Below, piece after piece: positions 46,356 through 53,670 of a stretch of DNA of 64,000 nucleotides. The translations under genes were made by a program, and so were the position numbers. A model generated the notes under the pieces. That model saw nothing but the letters and a program-made list of their open reading frames with translations. It did no database searches and had not been told where the DNA came from. Positions within the stretch are counted from its first letter, which is position 1; each line of letters opens with the position of its first letter. Source of the stretch: an uncultured Gammaproteobacteria bacterium (lineage in GTDB: Bacteria > Pseudomonadota > Gammaproteobacteria > JACCXJ01); the NCBI GenBank assembly GCA_963764725.1, contig CAVXTM010000015.1, positions 313,209 to 377,208 on the forward strand, read 5' to 3'.

Positions 46356-46622
46356 CGCGTTATGTCGCACTAGGCATCGCTGTTCCAGTATCAGAATCCA
46401 TTACGCCTGTCACTGGATATGCTTTAACGGCGACGCGGCCAGAAAACCCTTAAGCGCGGCAAGCCGAGCCTGCGTGGTTTCCCACATCCAATTGGGAATA
46501 TTTATCACGTCGGTGTCGCCACTGGATATCTTGAATACCAGGCAATGCACTGCGGGAGAAATTTCAATAGATGGCATAATATGCTCACCCGGCTCGTACT
46601 ATTCCACCCTTGGGTTGTAAGT

Positions 46623-47879
46623 ATGTCTGGTATCCTCATTAGCTATCGGCGAGAAGACAGCGCCGGCCACGCTGGGCGGCTCTACGACCGGCTGGTGCGC
46701 GACTTCCACGAAGTCAAAGTCTTCATGGACGTGGAACAGATCGCGTCCGGCGACGACTTTGCCCGGGCTATCGAAGACATCGTGCAAACCTGCGACGTGC
46801 TGCTCGTAGTTATCGGGAAGCGTTGGCTGACGGCGGCGGACCAGTATGGACAGCGCCGGCTCGACAAGAGCGACGATTGGGTCCGGATGGAAGTCGGTGC
46901 TGCATTGACCCGTAATATCCGCGTAATTCCCTTGCTCATCGATGACGCGGCACTCCCAACGGCAGAGGCGCTCCCTGGAGACCTTGTGCGCCTGACCTCT
47001 CTTCAGGCCCATCCGATCAATCATCTCACCTTCCATCAAGACGTGGACCGACTCGTTGACCGGATCAAGACGGCCATTGGCGCGCGTAAGGCGACGCTGG
47101 CCAACAGCCATGCGCCGGGCACCAAACGCGTACATCCCCAGGATGGTCTCGAGTACGTGTGGATACCGCCGGGCCGGTTCCTGATGGGGCGCGTGCCCGG
47201 TGACAATGTCGAAGCCGAACGCTACGTCGTCGAGAAGCCCCAGCACCCGGTTAGGCTGACGCGGGGCTTCTGGCTGACGCGCGGACCCGTGACGGTCCGG
47301 GCCTACCGGTATTTCGTCACGAAGCGCGTACTGAAAATGCCCCGCGCGCCCGCCAACAACCCCAACTGGGCATACGACGACCATCCTGTCGTAAATGTCA
47401 CCTGGATGCAGGCGCGGGAATATGGTGCCTGGGTGGGCGGCCGATTGCCGACCGAAGCGCAGTGGGAGTATGCCAGCCGGGGTGGGATCGACAATACCAT
47501 CTACCCCTGGGGTAATGAGGTAAAGCCCGATATGGCGAATTACGTCGGTAATCCCAAGTGGGGACGACACAGCACTTCGCCGGTCGGATCATTCCCGGAA
47601 AATGGCTTTGGCCTCTATGACATGGTTGGCAATGTCTGGGAGTGGGTGTCGGACTGGTACGACGACGAAGCCTATAACACCCGTCCGCCACACGAGCCGA
47701 CCGTTGACCCGGAGATATTTGTCAACAAGCACGATCGGCGCGTGGTCCGCGGCGGATCGTGGGATTCGATCGCTGAAGAGATCCGCCTGTCGGTGCGGGG
47801 TTACCAGACGCCCGCCGCCGGCTTCCGCGACTTCGGCTTTCGCTGTCTGGTTGACGAAATACCGGAAGGCCCCGTCTAG
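46623..47879 (+). CDS. TIR domain + FGE-sulfatase (SUMF1/CLec-fold) domain protein
   Basis: ILISYRREDS..VFMDV..DWVRMEV..VIPLL; then F.MG, RLPTEAQWEYA, NGFGLYDMVGNVWEW, RGGSW, GFRC. Confidence 0.9.
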   Translation: MSGILISYRREDSAGHAGRLYDRLVRDFHEVKVFMDVEQIASGDDFARAIEDIVQTCDVLLVVIGKRWLTAADQYGQRRLDKSDDWVRMEVGAALTRNIRVIPLLIDDAALPTAEALPGDLVRLTSLQAHPINHLTFHQDVDRLVDRIKTAIGARKATLANSHAPGTKRVHPQDGLEYVWIPPGRFLMGRVPGDNVEAERYVVEKPQHPVRLTRGFWLTRGPVTVRAYRYFVTKRVLKMPRAPANNPNWAYDDHPVVNVTWMQAREYGAWVGGRLPTEAQWEYASRGGIDNTIYPWGNEVKPDMANYVGNPKWGRHSTSPVGSFPENGFGLYDMVGNVWEWVSDWYDDEAYNTRPPHEPTVDPEIFVNKHDRRVVRGGSWDSIAEEIRLSVRGYQTPAAGFRDFGFRCLVDEIPEGPV

Positions 47880-48952
47880 CGGCTGAGGTCCTCGAATAAG
47901 CGGCAGTAGCGACGCCCCATCATCTGATCCGTGAAGTGACGCTCGTAACGCCGTCGAGCGCCACGGCACAGGGCGACAAGCTCATCGGAGCTTGCCGCGT
48001 CCCAGGCATACATGGCTGCGCGAAACGCCGCGTAGCTCGCGTCGGCGCAAAAAAACGCGTGATCGCCCAGCACCTCGACCAGTCCGTCGATACGGGTACA
48101 AACCACCGGAATGCCGCGTGCCGCTGCTTCCAGAGCGACGAGGCCGAAAGGCTCATAAATCGATGGAACGGCAAGGATGTCTATGGCGTCAAAAAATGCC
48201 TCCAGCCGGGGGCCGACGCACCAGCCCAGGAATGTGACTCTCGCGTCCAGCCGGTGCGTGTTCAACAGATCGCGCGCATACGGGCTGAACCCGCGCCCCG
48301 CAATAAGCACACGGCGGTCCTCGAATCCGTGCTCGTTGAGCATCATTTGCACATACTCAGGATGCTTTCGCGGCACGAGGCGTCCGCAATAGCCGAGGAC
48401 GCGCTTACCGCGCGGAATGCGACACCGTGGTGGCCGCCGCACACCGTTATGGATGACATGCACGTTGGGGTTCAAGCGCTGATAGCCTAGCGCCAAATAG
48501 CTCCGTCGTTCGGCCTCGGAGAGCACCACGGCATAGGTGCTGCTGGCGATCAGCCGCTCCTGCCAGCCAACGACTCCACCGAGCTTCACATCGTTCGACG
48601 TCTCTTCGAGCGCCAGCAGTGAGTGCAGCGTGCATACCGCTTTGCGGCTTGCCACGTAGGTCGCGAGGGCGGAATTCTCCTGATATGAATGAATGTGTGC
48701 GACCGGCGCGTTGAACCGTAGGAGATCCGCGACCTGGCCGACGGCTACGTCGGGAAAGCGTTGGAGGATTTCGTCGATCTGCGCGGGAAGATAACCATGG
48801 TCGGTAAGAAACCAGAGGGGTCGAACACCCTCGCTTTTAAGCCCCGACATCAGGTTCTCGATGACGGTACCGACGCCCCCCATCCGGTTAAGGGGCATCT
48901 CGTTCGTGATCTCGATTACGTCAAACGCTTGCCGCGCAGTGTTGGTAATCAC
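47876..48952 (-). CDS. Glycosyltransferase family 4
   Basis: GGVGTV, IHNGV, GRLVPRK, PSIYEPFGLVALEA. Confidence 0.9.
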   Translation of the reverse strand: MITNTARQAFDVIEITNEMPLNRMGGVGTVIENLMSGLKSEGVRPLWFLTDHGYLPAQIDEILQRFPDVAVGQVADLLRFNAPVAHIHSYQENSALATYVASRKAVCTLHSLLALEETSNDVKLGGVVGWQERLIASSTYAVVLSEAERRSYLALGYQRLNPNVHVIHNGVRRPPRCRIPRGKRVLGYCGRLVPRKHPEYVQMMLNEHGFEDRRVLIAGRGFSPYARDLLNTHRLDARVTFLGWCVGPRLEAFFDAIDILAVPSIYEPFGLVALEAAARGIPVVCTRIDGLVEVLGDHAFFCADASYAAFRAAMYAWDAASSDELVALCRGARRRYERHFTDQMMGRRYCRLFEDLSR

Positions 48953-49413: not shown

Positions 49414-49965
49414 AGTGCATTACTCTATCCATGCGGTCGCAAGAGTGAAGTCATGGCCTGGCGAAAGAGAATGTTTCGCACCTTTACATCAGTTCGGAAA
49501 CGGGCATGAAATGGGATCGTAGCCGACTTTATTGACTATCGCACGGACGCCGGCCACGACATTCGTCTCCCCGCGCCCGCGAACGCGAGCCGATAAACTC
49601 TTAAGAGTCTCATGATGGTAACCAGACGGAGTGCCGAGCGCCAACATATCGTAACTGCCTGTTCATCCGCGATTGACGTCGAGGTGATGCGGCGAGGATT
49701 CGCTAGTAGGTCTATAGAGAAAATGTCCCTGCGCTTAAGCGCGCTTCGCAATGCGTCACGAGGCTCTTTCACATAGGTATGGTCAGCCCCGAAGATTCGT
49801 CGTATCGACCACGGGCGAGGTAATCGGAAAGCTCCCGTTGCACATAGGTGGCAGCCTGCCGCCATCTACATCAGAAGCTATGGAGCATTCGCAGTAATTC
49901 GATTTTGCGGTGCGCCGCCGCTTGCCCAGCAGCCGGGTGAGCCACGCCTGAGCCGGGGTATAGGA

Positions 49966-50075
49966 ACCGCGAGGTACAGCTCATATTCGTGATGCTCGGG
50001 ATTGCCGCAATATTCCGTGCCCCGATCGGTCAACACCCGCAGGAGCGCGATGTCGTGTTCAGCAGGCAGCAACAG
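49966..50075 (-). mobile_element. IS481-family transposase internal fragment
   Basis: LLRVLTDRGTEYCGNPEHHEYELYLAV. Confidence 0.8.
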
Positions 50076-50127
50076 CATTGCCTTTCTCGCACGAGAGGAT
50101 AGCCCAGGATCAGAACCAATTATTATG

Positions 50128-50346
50128 TTACGTTTTATCTGAGAGCTTACGCAGGATTTCGCTCTTATCGATATTCTTCGCTGCAGCGACGGCGCGCAAC
50201 ACTGCGTTTAACGTTCCTAGTCGCAACGAATCGTGTGCGGGTATCGCAATACGGTGATGGCGCGGGACGTCAGTTACGAGGATGACATGACTACCGACTT
50301 GGTGTACCAGCCGATAACCAAAATATTTTTCGAGTATTTTACCTAA
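50128..50346 (-). pseudogene. hicA: HicA toxin 3' part (5' part at 52028-52065), split by an insertion
   Basis: LGKILEKYFGYRLVHQVGSHVIL..IAIPAHDSLRLGTLNAVL; joins MKLPRN.SG across the TTAG overlap. Confidence 0.82.
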
Positions 50347-52027
50347 CCCGGCATAGCCGGAACCAAGGTGTTGAATGTACTATTCTGGCGGATGGGCAAT
50401 AAGAACTGGAGATGGGTCGTCGCCATGAACTCCTTTGTTGAACGCCATCAAGCGAAGATCGCCGCGGTGCTTTGTTGCTTTGACCGCATCGTGATCACTG
50501 GCACGCTTCCGGAGATCGCCCATGCCGAGGCTATGGCCCGGTATTTGGGTGTCCGGGGTATGCGTCTGTTTGACTATCCCCGCTGGGCAGAACCGCTGCG
50601 CGAGGCGCTTCGGACCCATGCCGAGCGGCTGGCCGCTGAGGCTTCGTTGGAAATTGAATTCATCCGTCATTACAAGGCGTTTCGTAAAGAAGAACGGATC
50701 AAAGCGATTTTGGCTTTGCGCGGTGAGCACCCGGGGCTGGTGCATATCTTCTCGGCGATGGAGGCCTGTCCTTCGTATCGCCCCTGGCATGACAAGCTTC
50801 AGCATACGACCCGTTTGAAGTCTACCCCGGGCAAGTGTTTGCATTATTACTTCTATTTCATCGATGAGATCTTCGGGCTCTGTTATGTCCGAGTACCCAC
50901 CTGGGCACCGTTTCGCCTGCAGGTCTATTTGAACGGCCATCACTGGTTAGCCCAACGACTGACCAAGACAGGGATCGCCTTTGAGCGCGCCGATAATGCC
51001 TTCTTGTCCATCGGCGATCCCCAACAGGCTCAGGCGCTTGCCGATAGCCTCGATCCCAAAGGCTTGCATCGGCGTTTGGACCGATGGGCGAAAAGCTTCT
51101 GTCCTATCTTGGGTCAGTTTCGCGCTGGTTATCACTGGAGCTTCATGCAGGTGGAGTTGCATCCTCGGCGCGCCAAGCAGGGCCACTCCCTGGCCCTGGC
51201 TTTCTCGACCGATGTCATCTTCCACCGCCAAGCCGATTTCCAACCCCTCTATCAAGCCATCGTGCGTACCGCCGTGCATGCCCTCAAGGCAGAACACGTC
51301 GCCACCTTCTTGGGACGCAAACTCACCTCGGCCTTCAGCGGGGAGGCCGGTAACGATTTTCACACCCGCATTCAGGGTACACGCATCCGCCATCATATGG
51401 GACCAGCAAGCCTCAAGCTCTACGATAAATTCAGTCTCATGGCTCGGGTGGAATGCACCGCCAACGATGTCTCCTTCTTCAAACACCACCGTTGGGTGGA
51501 ACAACGCAATGGGCGCAAGCAATTCAAACTCGCACCCCTGCGAAAAAACATCTATAGCCTCCCCGATCTGCGAGAGCTGATGCATGCTGCCAATGAACGC
51601 TATCTCAGCTTCATGGCCAGCATCGATAACCCCAATGCAGCTCTGCACGCCATCGACAAAATGGCCAAACCTGTACGAGAGAAAGACCGCTCCTATCGGG
51701 GCTTCAATCTCTTCCTCGGTGAAGATCATAGCCTTTATTATACCCTCGCCCGCGGGGAGTGGAACATCAGCGGCTTTCGCGCCTCCGATCTCCGAGCCCA
51801 TCTCCGGGATCTCTCCACCGGCCGTGCCTCCTACTGGTTGAAACGCTTGCGCACCCATGGCCTCATCAAAAAGATTGGACATCGCTACAAGTACTACCTC
51901 ACGACATTCGGTCGTCGTGTGCTCAGCAGCGCACTCGCTATCCGAGAGTATGTGGTCATGCCTGCTCTCAATACCGCTCATGCATGACACTCTTTGCTTT
52001 TTTGCACAAGATTTCATGGATAAGGGA
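50347..52027 (+). mobile_element. Insertion element without TIRs, flanked by CTAA, encoding a ~520-aa putative transposase (50425..51987) with a C-terminal winged HTH
   Basis: Interrupts hicA; CTAA at 50343-50346 and 52028-52031; left-end hairpin CCGGC-ATA-GCCGG; motifs HYYFYFID, LKLYDK..RVECT, LKRLRTHGLIKK..YYLT..G. Confidence 0.85.
51157..51201 (-). repeat. 45-bp hairpin insertion element, copy 2 (inverted relative to copy 1)
   Basis: Adds LHPRRAKQGHSLALA between QVE and FSTD; stem CAGGGCCA-CTCCC-TGGCCCTG. Confidence 0.85.
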
Positions 52028-52061
52028 CTAAAGCGTACCCGCTAACGGTTACGCGGGAGCT

Positions 52062-52265
52062 TCACGCGCAGGCCAGCACTTCATCGCGCACGAAGTGGAG
52101 GCGGCGCAACGGTTTAGGCTGGTCGTAGAAGTACGCCGATACTGCTTCAAGGACGTTGACGCGTAATTGTTCCCAGGTATCGCCTTCAGTGAAAATATCG
52201 TGCGAAAGACATTCCGCGACGAACCCACCGTCACTTTCTTGGGTTACGCTAAAAACAATTTCCAT
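52062..52265 (-). CDS. hicB: HicB-like antitoxin
   Basis: EIVFSVTQESDGGFVAECL..IFTEGDTWEQLR.NV.EAV; GTGA overlap with the hicA start. Confidence 0.8.
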   Translation of the reverse strand: MEIVFSVTQESDGGFVAECLSHDIFTEGDTWEQLRVNVLEAVSAYFYDQPKPLRRLHFVRDEVLACA

Positions 52266-53108: not shown

Positions 53109-53475
53109 TGTAAAAGTCAATACCTGATTTGACAGTTGACTGTATGTGTCTGCACGTTGTTAGTCGGGTTAAAACTGTCGGTTGTCACTTACGCCGCCAG
53201 GAGCTTCTCTTTCGCTAAAGATAGACTATCGAGAAACGTTTGCCTAGGGGTTTTCCCATAACACCACCGGCCTTGATGGGGGCGTTGTTCGTGCATCAGC
53301 CAGGCATCCAAATCGCTTTGCAATTCCTCGAGGGTCGTGTAGATCTTCTTTCGGAACTGCACCCGGTAGAATTCGTTAAGCACGGTTTTATGGAAGCGCT
53401 CGCAGATCCCGTTGCTCTGGGGGCTTTTCGTTTTGGTGCGGGTGTGGTCGATGTTTTCCGACCGGCACGAGGTAC
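53109..53475 (-). mobile_element. IS481-family 3' remnant with terminal repeat
   Basis: ENIDHTRTKTKSPQSNGICERFHKT..RPHQGRWCYGKTP; terminus TGTAAAAGTCAATACCTGATTTGACA. Confidence 0.85.
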
Positions 53476-53479
53476 ACGC

Positions 53480-53670
53480 GGCCCTGCGTAGAGACATGTC
53501 GAAACCGTAGCCCGTGACCATTGACCGAGGGAAAAGTTGTTTTTACGCGAGCAGCTAAACAAGATGATAGCGCCGCGCTACGGACTCCGGACGAGATTAC
53601 CTGCGCCTCAAGGTGCTACCTGCATGCTGCCGGTACTGTGAAACCATACCCCTGACCACGATGAACAGTT
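53480..53670 (+). mobile_element. Highly degraded ISL3-family remnant
   Basis: Across frames: DMSKP ... NK..RYGL..DYLRLKVL.CMLPVL-stop. Confidence 0.5.

Follow-up and report, generated by a model that had tools for sequence, protein, structure and literature searches.

Insertion sequences are grouped by the transposase that they encode, an enzyme for which only a few catalytic types have been described. The Rep_trans enzymes (PF02486), rolling-circle initiators and relaxases such as RepC and RepD of pT181 and pC221, RepSTK1, NicK of ICEBs1, Orf20 of Tn916 and RstA of CTXphi, serve plasmids, phages and conjugative elements. In the sections drawn on here (PMC4797284, PMC5714925), their nuclease domain is described as a crescent-shaped sheet of two five-strand modules with the connectivity of the TATA-box-binding protein (TBP). 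The nucleophile Y191 lies on a beta strand, flanked by R189 and K193 in an R-x-Y-x-K motif, the carboxylates D46, D142 and E214, each on a strand of its own, bind the metal in RepDE, and the enzyme, whose DNA-binding domain is separate, nicks at a hairpin (PMC4797284, PMC5714925). The motifs N' (D), I (RxD), II (T/SxY/ExG), III (YxKxxE) and IV (W/LxRxE) have been defined along the domain, as the same part of the second source reports (PMC5714925). In Rep-Arvir (DUF7845) of archaeal viruses and plasmids, an N-terminal nuclease domain is followed by a winged helix-turn-helix region and a further C-terminal domain, according to the portion of the source used (PMC13107129). Here we describe an element in a 64,000-nt stretch of DNA from an uncultured gammaproteobacterium (the window, to whose positions coordinates without a contig name refer). 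The element is a 1681-bp insertion sequence with a single gene, lying in a hicA toxin gene between CTAA at 50343-50346 and CTAA at 52028-52031. It is fairly likely that it is an autonomous member of a very large, unannotated family, moved by a single Rep_trans-like tyrosine enzyme that nicks and joins DNA.

The + strand reads ..TTTTAC CTAA / CCCGGCATAGCCGG AACCAAGG.. at 50337-50368 and ..GGATAAGGGA / CTAA AGCG.. at 52018-52035, the slash marking the borders of the 1681-bp body (50347-52027, + strand). The interrupted host gene is on the minus strand: its 5' part (52032-52058) reads ..VSGYAL up to 52028, and the frame picks up at 50346 as LGKILEKYFGYRLVHQVGSH.. in the 3' part (50128-50346), which matches HicA_toxin with E 1.8e-8 from profile position 6 of 58 onwards. 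An uninterrupted 83-aa HicA (P0391), 99% identical across all 72 residues of the 3' piece, runs straight through the insertion site (..NVSGYALVKILEKYFGY..). The empty site therefore exists in nature, and removal of the element together with four bases restores hicA. Both the extent of the element between two CTAA and the rejoining of hicA on its excision with one CTAA had been noted in an earlier sequence-only reading of this DNA, and both were borne out. At the DNA level, 30 other genomes gave no informative match to the empty site (one 34-base match, E 7e-4). Compared with P0391 and with one metagenome contig, the 5' part in the window has one extra base near 52047, so that the GTG start of hicA is out of frame; this base may have arisen by decay once the element was inserted, or be an error of assembly. 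A small gene upstream of hicA (52062-52265, - strand), without Pfam match, is presumed by its position to encode the antitoxin HicB.

The 1689-bp stretch formed by the body and both tetranucleotides occurs in its own genome as five full copies at 99-100% identity and three full-length copies at 92-93%, besides several that are partial or interrupted by other insertions. The eight full-length copies have identical ends. Left ends read C-CTAA/CCCGGCATAGCCGG in 11 of 12 cases and right ends GGATAAGGGA/CTAA in 11 of 11, so that the constancy of ends expected of other copies was indeed found; because the ends are constant while the sequences beyond them are unrelated, the boundaries are not due to chance. 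Metagenome contigs matching the element likewise split into different flanks at 50341-50343 and at 52032, diverging at both borders. The gene is intact in four of the five near-identical copies and in one of the three older ones. No terminal inverted repeats were found at the element ends, in agreement with the sequence-only reading. These findings confirm that 50343-52031 is an intact, multi-copy mobile insertion sequence without inverted repeats.

The family to which the element belongs is abundant. A word-index protein search gave at least 7825 homologues at E <= 0.001 among 8000 candidates scored, nearly all of about 505 aa and mostly on contigs of 1.6-3 kb, without any precomputed Pfam domain; an exhaustive search gave 7425 clusters at 50% identity, 681 of these at E <= 1e-30. 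Among 300 genomes of the same class nine match, a tally that includes two flagged as unpublished, and one of the nine (G271) carries five identical copies of the element with the same ends. A scan of species-representative genomes detected 504 relatives in many phyla, often with several copies per genome. The best 80 of these 504 (loci L059-L138), which served for the comparison of ends and junctions, come from Gammaproteobacteria, Nitrospirota, Planctomycetota, Acidobacteriota, Gemmatimonadota, Desulfobacterota, Chloroflexota, Armatimonadota, Methylomirabilota, Actinomycetota and others. Across the homologue, plasmid and genome searches the phyla of the family include Pseudomonadota, Acidobacteriota, Nitrospirota, Planctomycetota, Chloroflexota, Actinomycetota and others.

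NCBIfam is the source of the models by which NCBI names proteins. The 520-aa protein of the window has no Pfam or NCBIfam family match beyond weak winged-helix matches at its C-terminus, and PHROGs yielded a weak regulator match and nothing else. The few named homologues of the word-index search are labelled 'MarR family transcriptional regulator' or hypothetical, and those in 15 plasmid records are annotated as ArsR or hypothetical, never as transposase. A multi-copy element outside the Pfam and NCBIfam families fits the poorly characterised class of insertion sequence that had been suspected, and the foreseen misannotation of its gene as a MarR regulator has taken place among its relatives. 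A full-text literature search found no insertion sequence connected with the left-end motif or with an enzyme of the TBP-like or Rep_trans-like kind. The transposase gene is the sole open frame conserved in all elements and spans them from end to end. Among 78 related loci, 18 have the frame exactly antisense to this gene free of stops for at least 490 codons; with a GC content at third codon positions (GC3) >= 0.70, as in most of the 18, such openness is unsurprising. In L115 (GC3 0.41; see also L116-L117) no TTA, CTA or TCA is found among 68 leucine and serine codons, peers of like composition having 11-19. The antisense frame is broken in most relatives, and since it is also broken in elements with many fresh copies, it is not essential. 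CTAA is rarer within the gene than expected (45 observed against 132.5), but TAA in the context NNC TAA is a stop in the reading frame, which accounts for the depletion, so that it does not speak for self-avoidance by the element.

A left end could be recognised in 65 of the 80 related loci, and a right end was valid in 66. On the left, the layout is the tetranucleotide, a C, the hairpin CCGGC-NNN-GCCGG and AACCAAA. In the window the hairpin CCGGC-ATA-GCCGG (50348-50360) has a 5-bp stem that begins 1 nt inside the end and stands just before the conserved AACCAA (50361-50366). On a Burkholderia plasmid, two copies whose protein is only 25.6% identical keep the same left-end layout with the stem GAGGC-TCC-GCCTC. 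When 37 distinct left ends were compared, pairing was kept in 96.2% of cells and two of the five pairs had changed on both sides, with the compensatory stems CTGGC/GCCAG, GCGGC/GCCGC and GAGGC/GCCTC; the covariation score was reached by none of 500 shuffles, and controls slid along the sequence pair in at most 39.5% of cells. Folding energy is not significant by itself (z -2.2 to +0.2 for the end hairpins), so that the case for the left hairpin rests on conservation. The hairpin proposed in the sequence-only reading is therefore real, being present in the DNA fold centroid and maintained by compensatory changes. The right end of the window element (51988-52027) carries the conserved CAAGAT (52007-52012) and the terminal ATAAGGGA (52020-52027), and the order ..CAAGAT..(T/A)AAGG(G/T)A before the junction is kept in relatives down to 25.6% protein identity. 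A right-end hairpin is weak and does not covary, and it is not claimed.

The two tetranucleotides vary in different ways. On the left, 57 of the 65 junctions are CTAA and eight CCAA, preceded by C in 64. On the right, 45 of the 66 are CTA+A, nine CTA+C (seven with one shared flank), six CTA+T and three CTA+G, with three single deviants. At position 4 all 65 left junctions have A, but 19 of 66 right ones have another base (Fisher p 8e-7; 13 of 60, p 3e-5, if the shared flank is counted once), and position 2 is C in 8 of 65 on the left and 0 of 66 on the right (p 0.003). Kinship of the loci inflates these tests, yet every flank represents a separate insertion. The right junction can differ between nearly identical copies of one genome, with CTAT in G271 and in one Chromatiaceae metagenome-assembled genome (MAG) and CTAG in another MAG, and the seven CCAA left junctions with a scorable right junction all pair with CTAA or CTAC, never with CCAA. 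CTAA stands on both sides in 11 of 11 complete pairs of the own genome; elsewhere it does so in 31 of 55 pairs, the other 24 being unequal. Such position-specific variation indicates breakage and joining between T2 and A4 of the core rather than target duplication, and the suggestion that CTAA acts as a core is thereby upheld. The junctions fit a left side composed of target C-C-(T/C)-(A) and element (A)-A and a right side composed of element C-T-(A) and target (A)-N. In the window the left tetranucleotide (50343-50346, + strand, preceded by C at 50342) would accordingly derive in its left part from the target and in its right part from the element, and the right one (52028-52031, + strand) would owe CT(A) to the element and its last base to the target. 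Judged from these sequences, the element appears to insert into C-C-T-A/N, N being mostly A, without duplicating its target. Seven copies in different MAGs (L060, L068, L069, L073, L079, L084 and L089) share the right flank CTAC followed by gctttttcc.., either because the element has repeatedly landed beside one repeated sequence or because it travels together with that sequence.

The gene (50425-51987, + strand), read from an ATG common to the homologues, encodes a putative transposase of 520 aa with a TBP-like nuclease domain (residues 1-403) and a winged helix (about 403-520, nt 51631-51984). AlphaFold2 modelled the whole protein with a mean predicted local distance difference test (pLDDT) of 92.0 and a predicted template modelling score (pTM) of 0.83, and residues 1-403 with 93.3 and 0.90. 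Residues 403-520 form a winged helix whose best match is 3df8_A (Z 9.9, root-mean-square deviation (rmsd) 3.2 over 90 residues), as had been anticipated from the sequence. When the model of residues 1-403 was compared with 48,161 representative chains, more than 25 TBP entries were matched with Z 7.2-8.6 over 173-180 residues, and the Rep_trans enzyme RepDE (4cwc_A) ranked fifth with Z 7.1, rmsd 5.0 and 178 residues aligned to chain residues 39-239. Besides the TBPs, RepDE is the sole other whole-domain match among those listed for the PDB representative chains. Foldseek against BFVD found giant-virus TBPs and Inoviridae replication proteins at probabilities of 0.97-1.0, including A0A345N5L7 (E 1.3e-4, probability 1.0), the 'GST REP' of Inoviridae sp. 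(0.97) and A0A345MNV4 (0.97), the last of which is named as a PF02486-carrying protein in the part of the source drawn on (PMC13107129). No RNase H-like chain was among the best 50 matches listed of either structure search; Tn5 transposase appeared in the Foldseek PDB search with a probability of 0.07 and a TM score of 0.09 only. Features from the ESM Atlas fell into unnamed clusters at 0.78-0.82, below the meaningful level.

Conserved residues were read from 57 aligned homologues with identities as low as 28%. Invariant in all 57 are D20, R21, G104, E113, Y142, Y144, G151, P162, N170, L175, N191 and E244, as well as F266, K331, Y333, K335, R341 and E343; three plasmid homologues (23-49% identity) retain D20, R21, E113, Y142, Y144, E244, K331, Y333, K335, R341 and E343. 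The codons of K331-L-Y333-D-K335 and R341-V-E343 lie at 51415-51453 (+ strand). In both models the strands 328-335, with K331-x-Y333-x-K335, and 339-346, with R341-x-E343, are adjacent, D20 is on the first long strand, and Q-x-E244-x-A-T-D263 is on the long strand at the start of the second half, equivalent to strand 6. Y333 is proposed as the catalytic tyrosine on its beta strand, and D20, E244 and E343, which the models place on separate strands corresponding to those of RepDE, are candidate metal ligands.

The protein resembles the Rep_trans enzymes in several respects. The models predict a crescent TBP-like beta sheet of two five-strand modules, at middling Z; a tyrosine on a strand stands between basic residues (R189-x-Y191-x-K193 in RepD, K331-x-Y333-x-K335 here); an R-x-E motif follows on the next strand, and acidic residues occupy the first strand and the strand-6 equivalent. 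A separate DNA-binding domain lies C-terminal of the nuclease domain and a hairpin marks the proposed nick site. Motifs N', I, III and IV have counterparts here, matching in order and in structural elements, whereas motif II (T/S-x-Y/E-x-G) is not recognisable. Further differences are a domain of about 400 residues with long helical insertions, a proposed nick beside the hairpin rather than within its loop, and a host that is a 1.7-kb chromosomal multi-copy element with two cleavage sites instead of a plasmid, phage or conjugative element. The window protein has no match to PF02486 at E <= 1, and this family is absent among the best 25 of 47 Pfam families for the 57 homologues. Since fold and motifs are shared without profile similarity, the protein is filed as a fold-level analogue, which may work like a Rep_trans enzyme while not being a member of the Pfam family. 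The sequence-only reading had found KLYDK..RVE reminiscent of a Rep_trans signature; the invariance of the pair, the TBP-like fold and the RepDE match support this, with the refinement that the protein does not belong to Rep_trans at the level of sequence. Rep-Arvir is similar in that a MarR-like winged helix comes after a TBP-like nuclease domain at the N-terminus, in a kinship to Rep_trans visible in structure only, and in Foldseek matches that include giant-virus TBPs and the Inoviridae Rep A0A345MNV4 (PMC13107129). Unlike the present protein, Rep-Arvir is described there as archaeal, replicating circular viruses and plasmids and having its tyrosine in a KHYYM context (PMC13107129). Here a bacterial insertion sequence encodes the protein and the further C-terminal domain is lacking; PF25227 is absent among the best 25 of 47 Pfam families for the 57 members.

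Beyond the element itself, its ends, its copy number, the fold, the conserved residues and the junction asymmetry, which are shown, a route of transposition can be proposed in which the chemistry, the strandedness and the intermediate are those that we infer. The winged helix and the catalytic domain would bind the left end, where the hairpin begins 1 nt past CTAA. Tyr333, flanked by Lys331 and Lys335 and aided by a metal on acidic residues (candidates D20, E244 and E343), would nick the top strand within the tetranucleotide, after T2 or A3, and become bonded to the 5' end. The right end would be cut likewise after ..AAGGGA-CT(A), and joining of the two ends would give a circular, probably single-stranded copy of the element, which could be made by displacement synthesis, in the manner of IS91 and rolling-circle plasmids, or released by excision, in that of IS200/IS605. 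The circle junction might then be cut again and joined into a target C-C-T-A/N, each CTAA becoming part target and part element.

Several observations weigh against this reading. The Z scores of 7-8.6 lie in the middling range of the tool, and Foldseek against PDB returned nothing at E <= 0.001 for the whole protein or the domain. A profile search of PDB sequences gave winged-helix proteins and chance matches only, and hhalign of the family profile (57 sequences) against 42 genuine PF02486 proteins reached a probability of just 0.3. The suggested correspondence of Y333 to RepDE Y191, like that of the acidic triad, follows from motif order and strand position, not from superposition, and the two most remote of the three plasmid homologues have T in place of D263. 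Four metagenome runs, in which contigs alone were searched and rare forms are invisible, yielded no contig with a circle junction or an empty site. Scored against GC skew, the insertions show no replication-strand bias either: in the own genome the top strand is on the G-rich strand in eight copies, on the C-rich strand in three and unscorable in three, where the skew itself is weak, and in G271 it is on the G-rich strand in two of five, giving 10 of 16 together (p 0.45) in a small sample. Such a mixed orientation would not fit a strict lagging-strand preference of the IS200/IS605 kind. On the 3.72-Mb contig of G271 the sign of the skew switches at about 1.8 Mb, and the copies lie three and two on the two replichores in the same absolute orientation. 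All five (G271:C2; L021, L030, L036, L040 and L042) are within about 0.2 Mb of the contig ends, so that, with the skew switch taken as the origin, they cluster around the presumed terminus.

The proliferating subfamily itself also counts against the proposed active site, as it carries a 15-residue insert between two conserved residues of that strand. All five young copies have an in-frame 45-bp repeat resembling repetitive extragenic palindromes (REP-like; 51157-51201, + strand, 15 residues) between the invariant E244 and F-S-T-D263, which is missing from the 92-93% identical copies (L006-L008). The repeat contains the 7-bp stem CAGGGCC/GGCCCTG and has at least 17 dispersed copies elsewhere in the genome, for example at C18:697033-697079, at C9:7520-7562 and, on the contig of the window, at C15:171900-171948. 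One metagenome contig skips exactly 51157-51201, and in one soil metagenome the depth at the repeat is about 6x higher. In the AlphaFold models the encoded loop is looped out with pLDDT below 50. Either the enzyme tolerates this loop, or the young copies have been moved in trans by an intact 505-aa copy on contig C10, the ends of which are identical to theirs. Other insertions, roughly 1.2 and 1.4 kb long, interrupt two further copies (C11:177653-180497 and C18:264423-267499), and one of these insertions sits within the 45-bp repeat.

Other explanations have to be set against a Rep_trans-like transposase. The same protein might be a conservative site-specific recombinase of double-stranded DNA, comparable to those of IS110/IS1111 or of small integrative elements, which would form a double-stranded circle and exchange its CTAA core with a CCTAA-like target without single-stranded intermediate or replication. 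The junction asymmetry, which places exchange in the 4-bp core, is equally compatible with one strand or two, and the constant ends and target together with the lack of orientation bias found (10 of 16) suit such a recombinase. Nevertheless, two-strand exchange would require four cleavages, the protein shows no likeness in Pfam to DEDD, serine or tyrosine recombinases (a lack already remarked in the sequence-only reading for the DDE, serine and tyrosine types, and matched by the Pfam result), and its fold and single invariant tyrosine motif resemble enzymes that nick and join one strand, as the relevant part of the source describes them (PMC4797284). We regard this alternative as unlikely, although worth keeping in view.

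It is a good deal less probable that the 520-aa protein is merely a DNA-binding regulator or accessory factor, as the MarR and ArsR annotations imply, with the mover encoded elsewhere. MarR and ArsR regulators are stand-alone winged-helix proteins of about 100-150 residues that act as dimeric repressors. Here, the winged helix makes up residues 403-520 of 520, the gene is multi-copy with mobile ends, and the best Pfam MarR match among the 57 members has E 0.032, in three members. Winged-helix regulators do provide the only similarity at sequence level, and the most abundant subfamily has the insert in the proposed catalytic strand; but the gene fills the elements as their only conserved open frame, the antisense frame being broken in most relatives, and conservation is high over the about 400 residues outside the winged helix, among them D, E, Y, K and R positions that do not vary down to 23% identity. 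Moreover, the same gene and ends travel together over many phyla and on plasmids. Least credible of all is conventional cut-and-paste transposition by an unrecognised DDE-type enzyme, with duplication of CTAA as a favoured 4-bp target. The matching CTAA of all 11 own-genome pairs and of 31 of 55 pairs elsewhere would be expected of it, whereas terminal inverted repeats are absent, the 24 unequal pairs differ at one position per side, Pfam shows no DDE family match, and the confidently modelled domains are TBP-like and winged-helix, without an RNase H-like chain among the best 50 matches listed.

The Rep_trans-like reading is thus preferred, and the element probably represents a new class of transposon whose enzyme resembles a plasmid rolling-circle nuclease and is unlike known transposases. 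With confidence a little better than even, we regard it as the first insertion-sequence family with a TBP-fold, Rep_trans-like tyrosine-nuclease transposase, derived from a captured rolling-circle initiator, ranking with the more abundant insertion sequences of bacteria (thousands of clusters, many phyla) and annotated throughout as a regulator. If so, a further catalytic class would stand beside the DDE, DEDD, HUH, serine, tyrosine-recombinase and Cas1 transposases, and the capture of an initiator would parallel that of the HUH-based IS91 and IS200 families. Should the enzyme work as proposed, it would be a second, independent case of a rolling-circle initiator turned transposase, and a compact, sequence-specific enzyme that nicks and joins DNA at a short target, C-C-T-A, beside a hairpin. 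Because relatives are annotated as MarR, ArsR or hypothetical, genome annotation misses the element and its gene disruptions are overlooked; many assemblies break at it, most homologues being on contigs of 1.6-3 kb.

The surroundings of the hicBA locus hold remnants of other mobile elements on both sides. An rve_3 integrase-core fragment (53189-53521, - strand) has E 2.2e-9; on the other side a 66-aa frame (49878-50078, - strand) has no Pfam match at E <= 0.1, its likeness to an integrase fragment being an impression, and metagenome contigs break at 50036. Farther away, a gene joining a TIR domain to an FGE-sulfatase-like domain in one protein (46545-47879, + strand) adjoins a family-4 glycosyltransferase gene (47876-48952, - strand) that also matches the 'GT4-conflict' model; this pair (46545-48952) is possibly a defence locus.

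Compared with described transposons, the element combines features of several classes. IS110/IS1111 elements, with DEDD enzymes, have no or minimal inverted repeats and a short core common to junction and target, and they insert in a sequence-specific manner. The present element shares the absence of inverted repeats, the short core in junction and target and the specific insertion, but it has no DEDD_Tnp_IS110 or Transposase_20 match, a different fold, and no long non-coding guide-RNA leader, the left end being 78 nt from the ATG. In the IS200/IS605 family, moved by the HUH Y1 TnpA, inverted repeats and target duplication are likewise lacking, a tetranucleotide abuts the left end, a subterminal hairpin is present and a circular joint is formed. 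The same absence of repeats and duplication, a specific tetranucleotide at the left end and a subterminal hairpin are found here, and a single tyrosine nuclease would be expected to form a circular joint. In contrast, the fold is unrelated, with neither HUH motif nor Y1_Tnp match, the protein is about 3.5x larger and has its own winged helix, the left hairpin alone is well supported, and no replication-strand bias was seen (10 of 16). IS91, ISCR and Helitron-type elements, with HUH Y2 enzymes, are characterised by the lack of inverted repeats, a junction tetranucleotide, replicative spread and an enzyme related to initiators. No HUH Y2 transposase was matched in Pfam by the window protein or appeared among the families listed for the 57 homologues. 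The element nevertheless resembles this group in lacking inverted repeats, in having a specific junction tetranucleotide with a like sequence at the other end, in its spread to many copies and in an enzyme akin to plasmid rolling-circle initiators, and it differs in the class of initiator, which is Rep_trans-like rather than HUH, with one tyrosine motif in place of two tyrosines.

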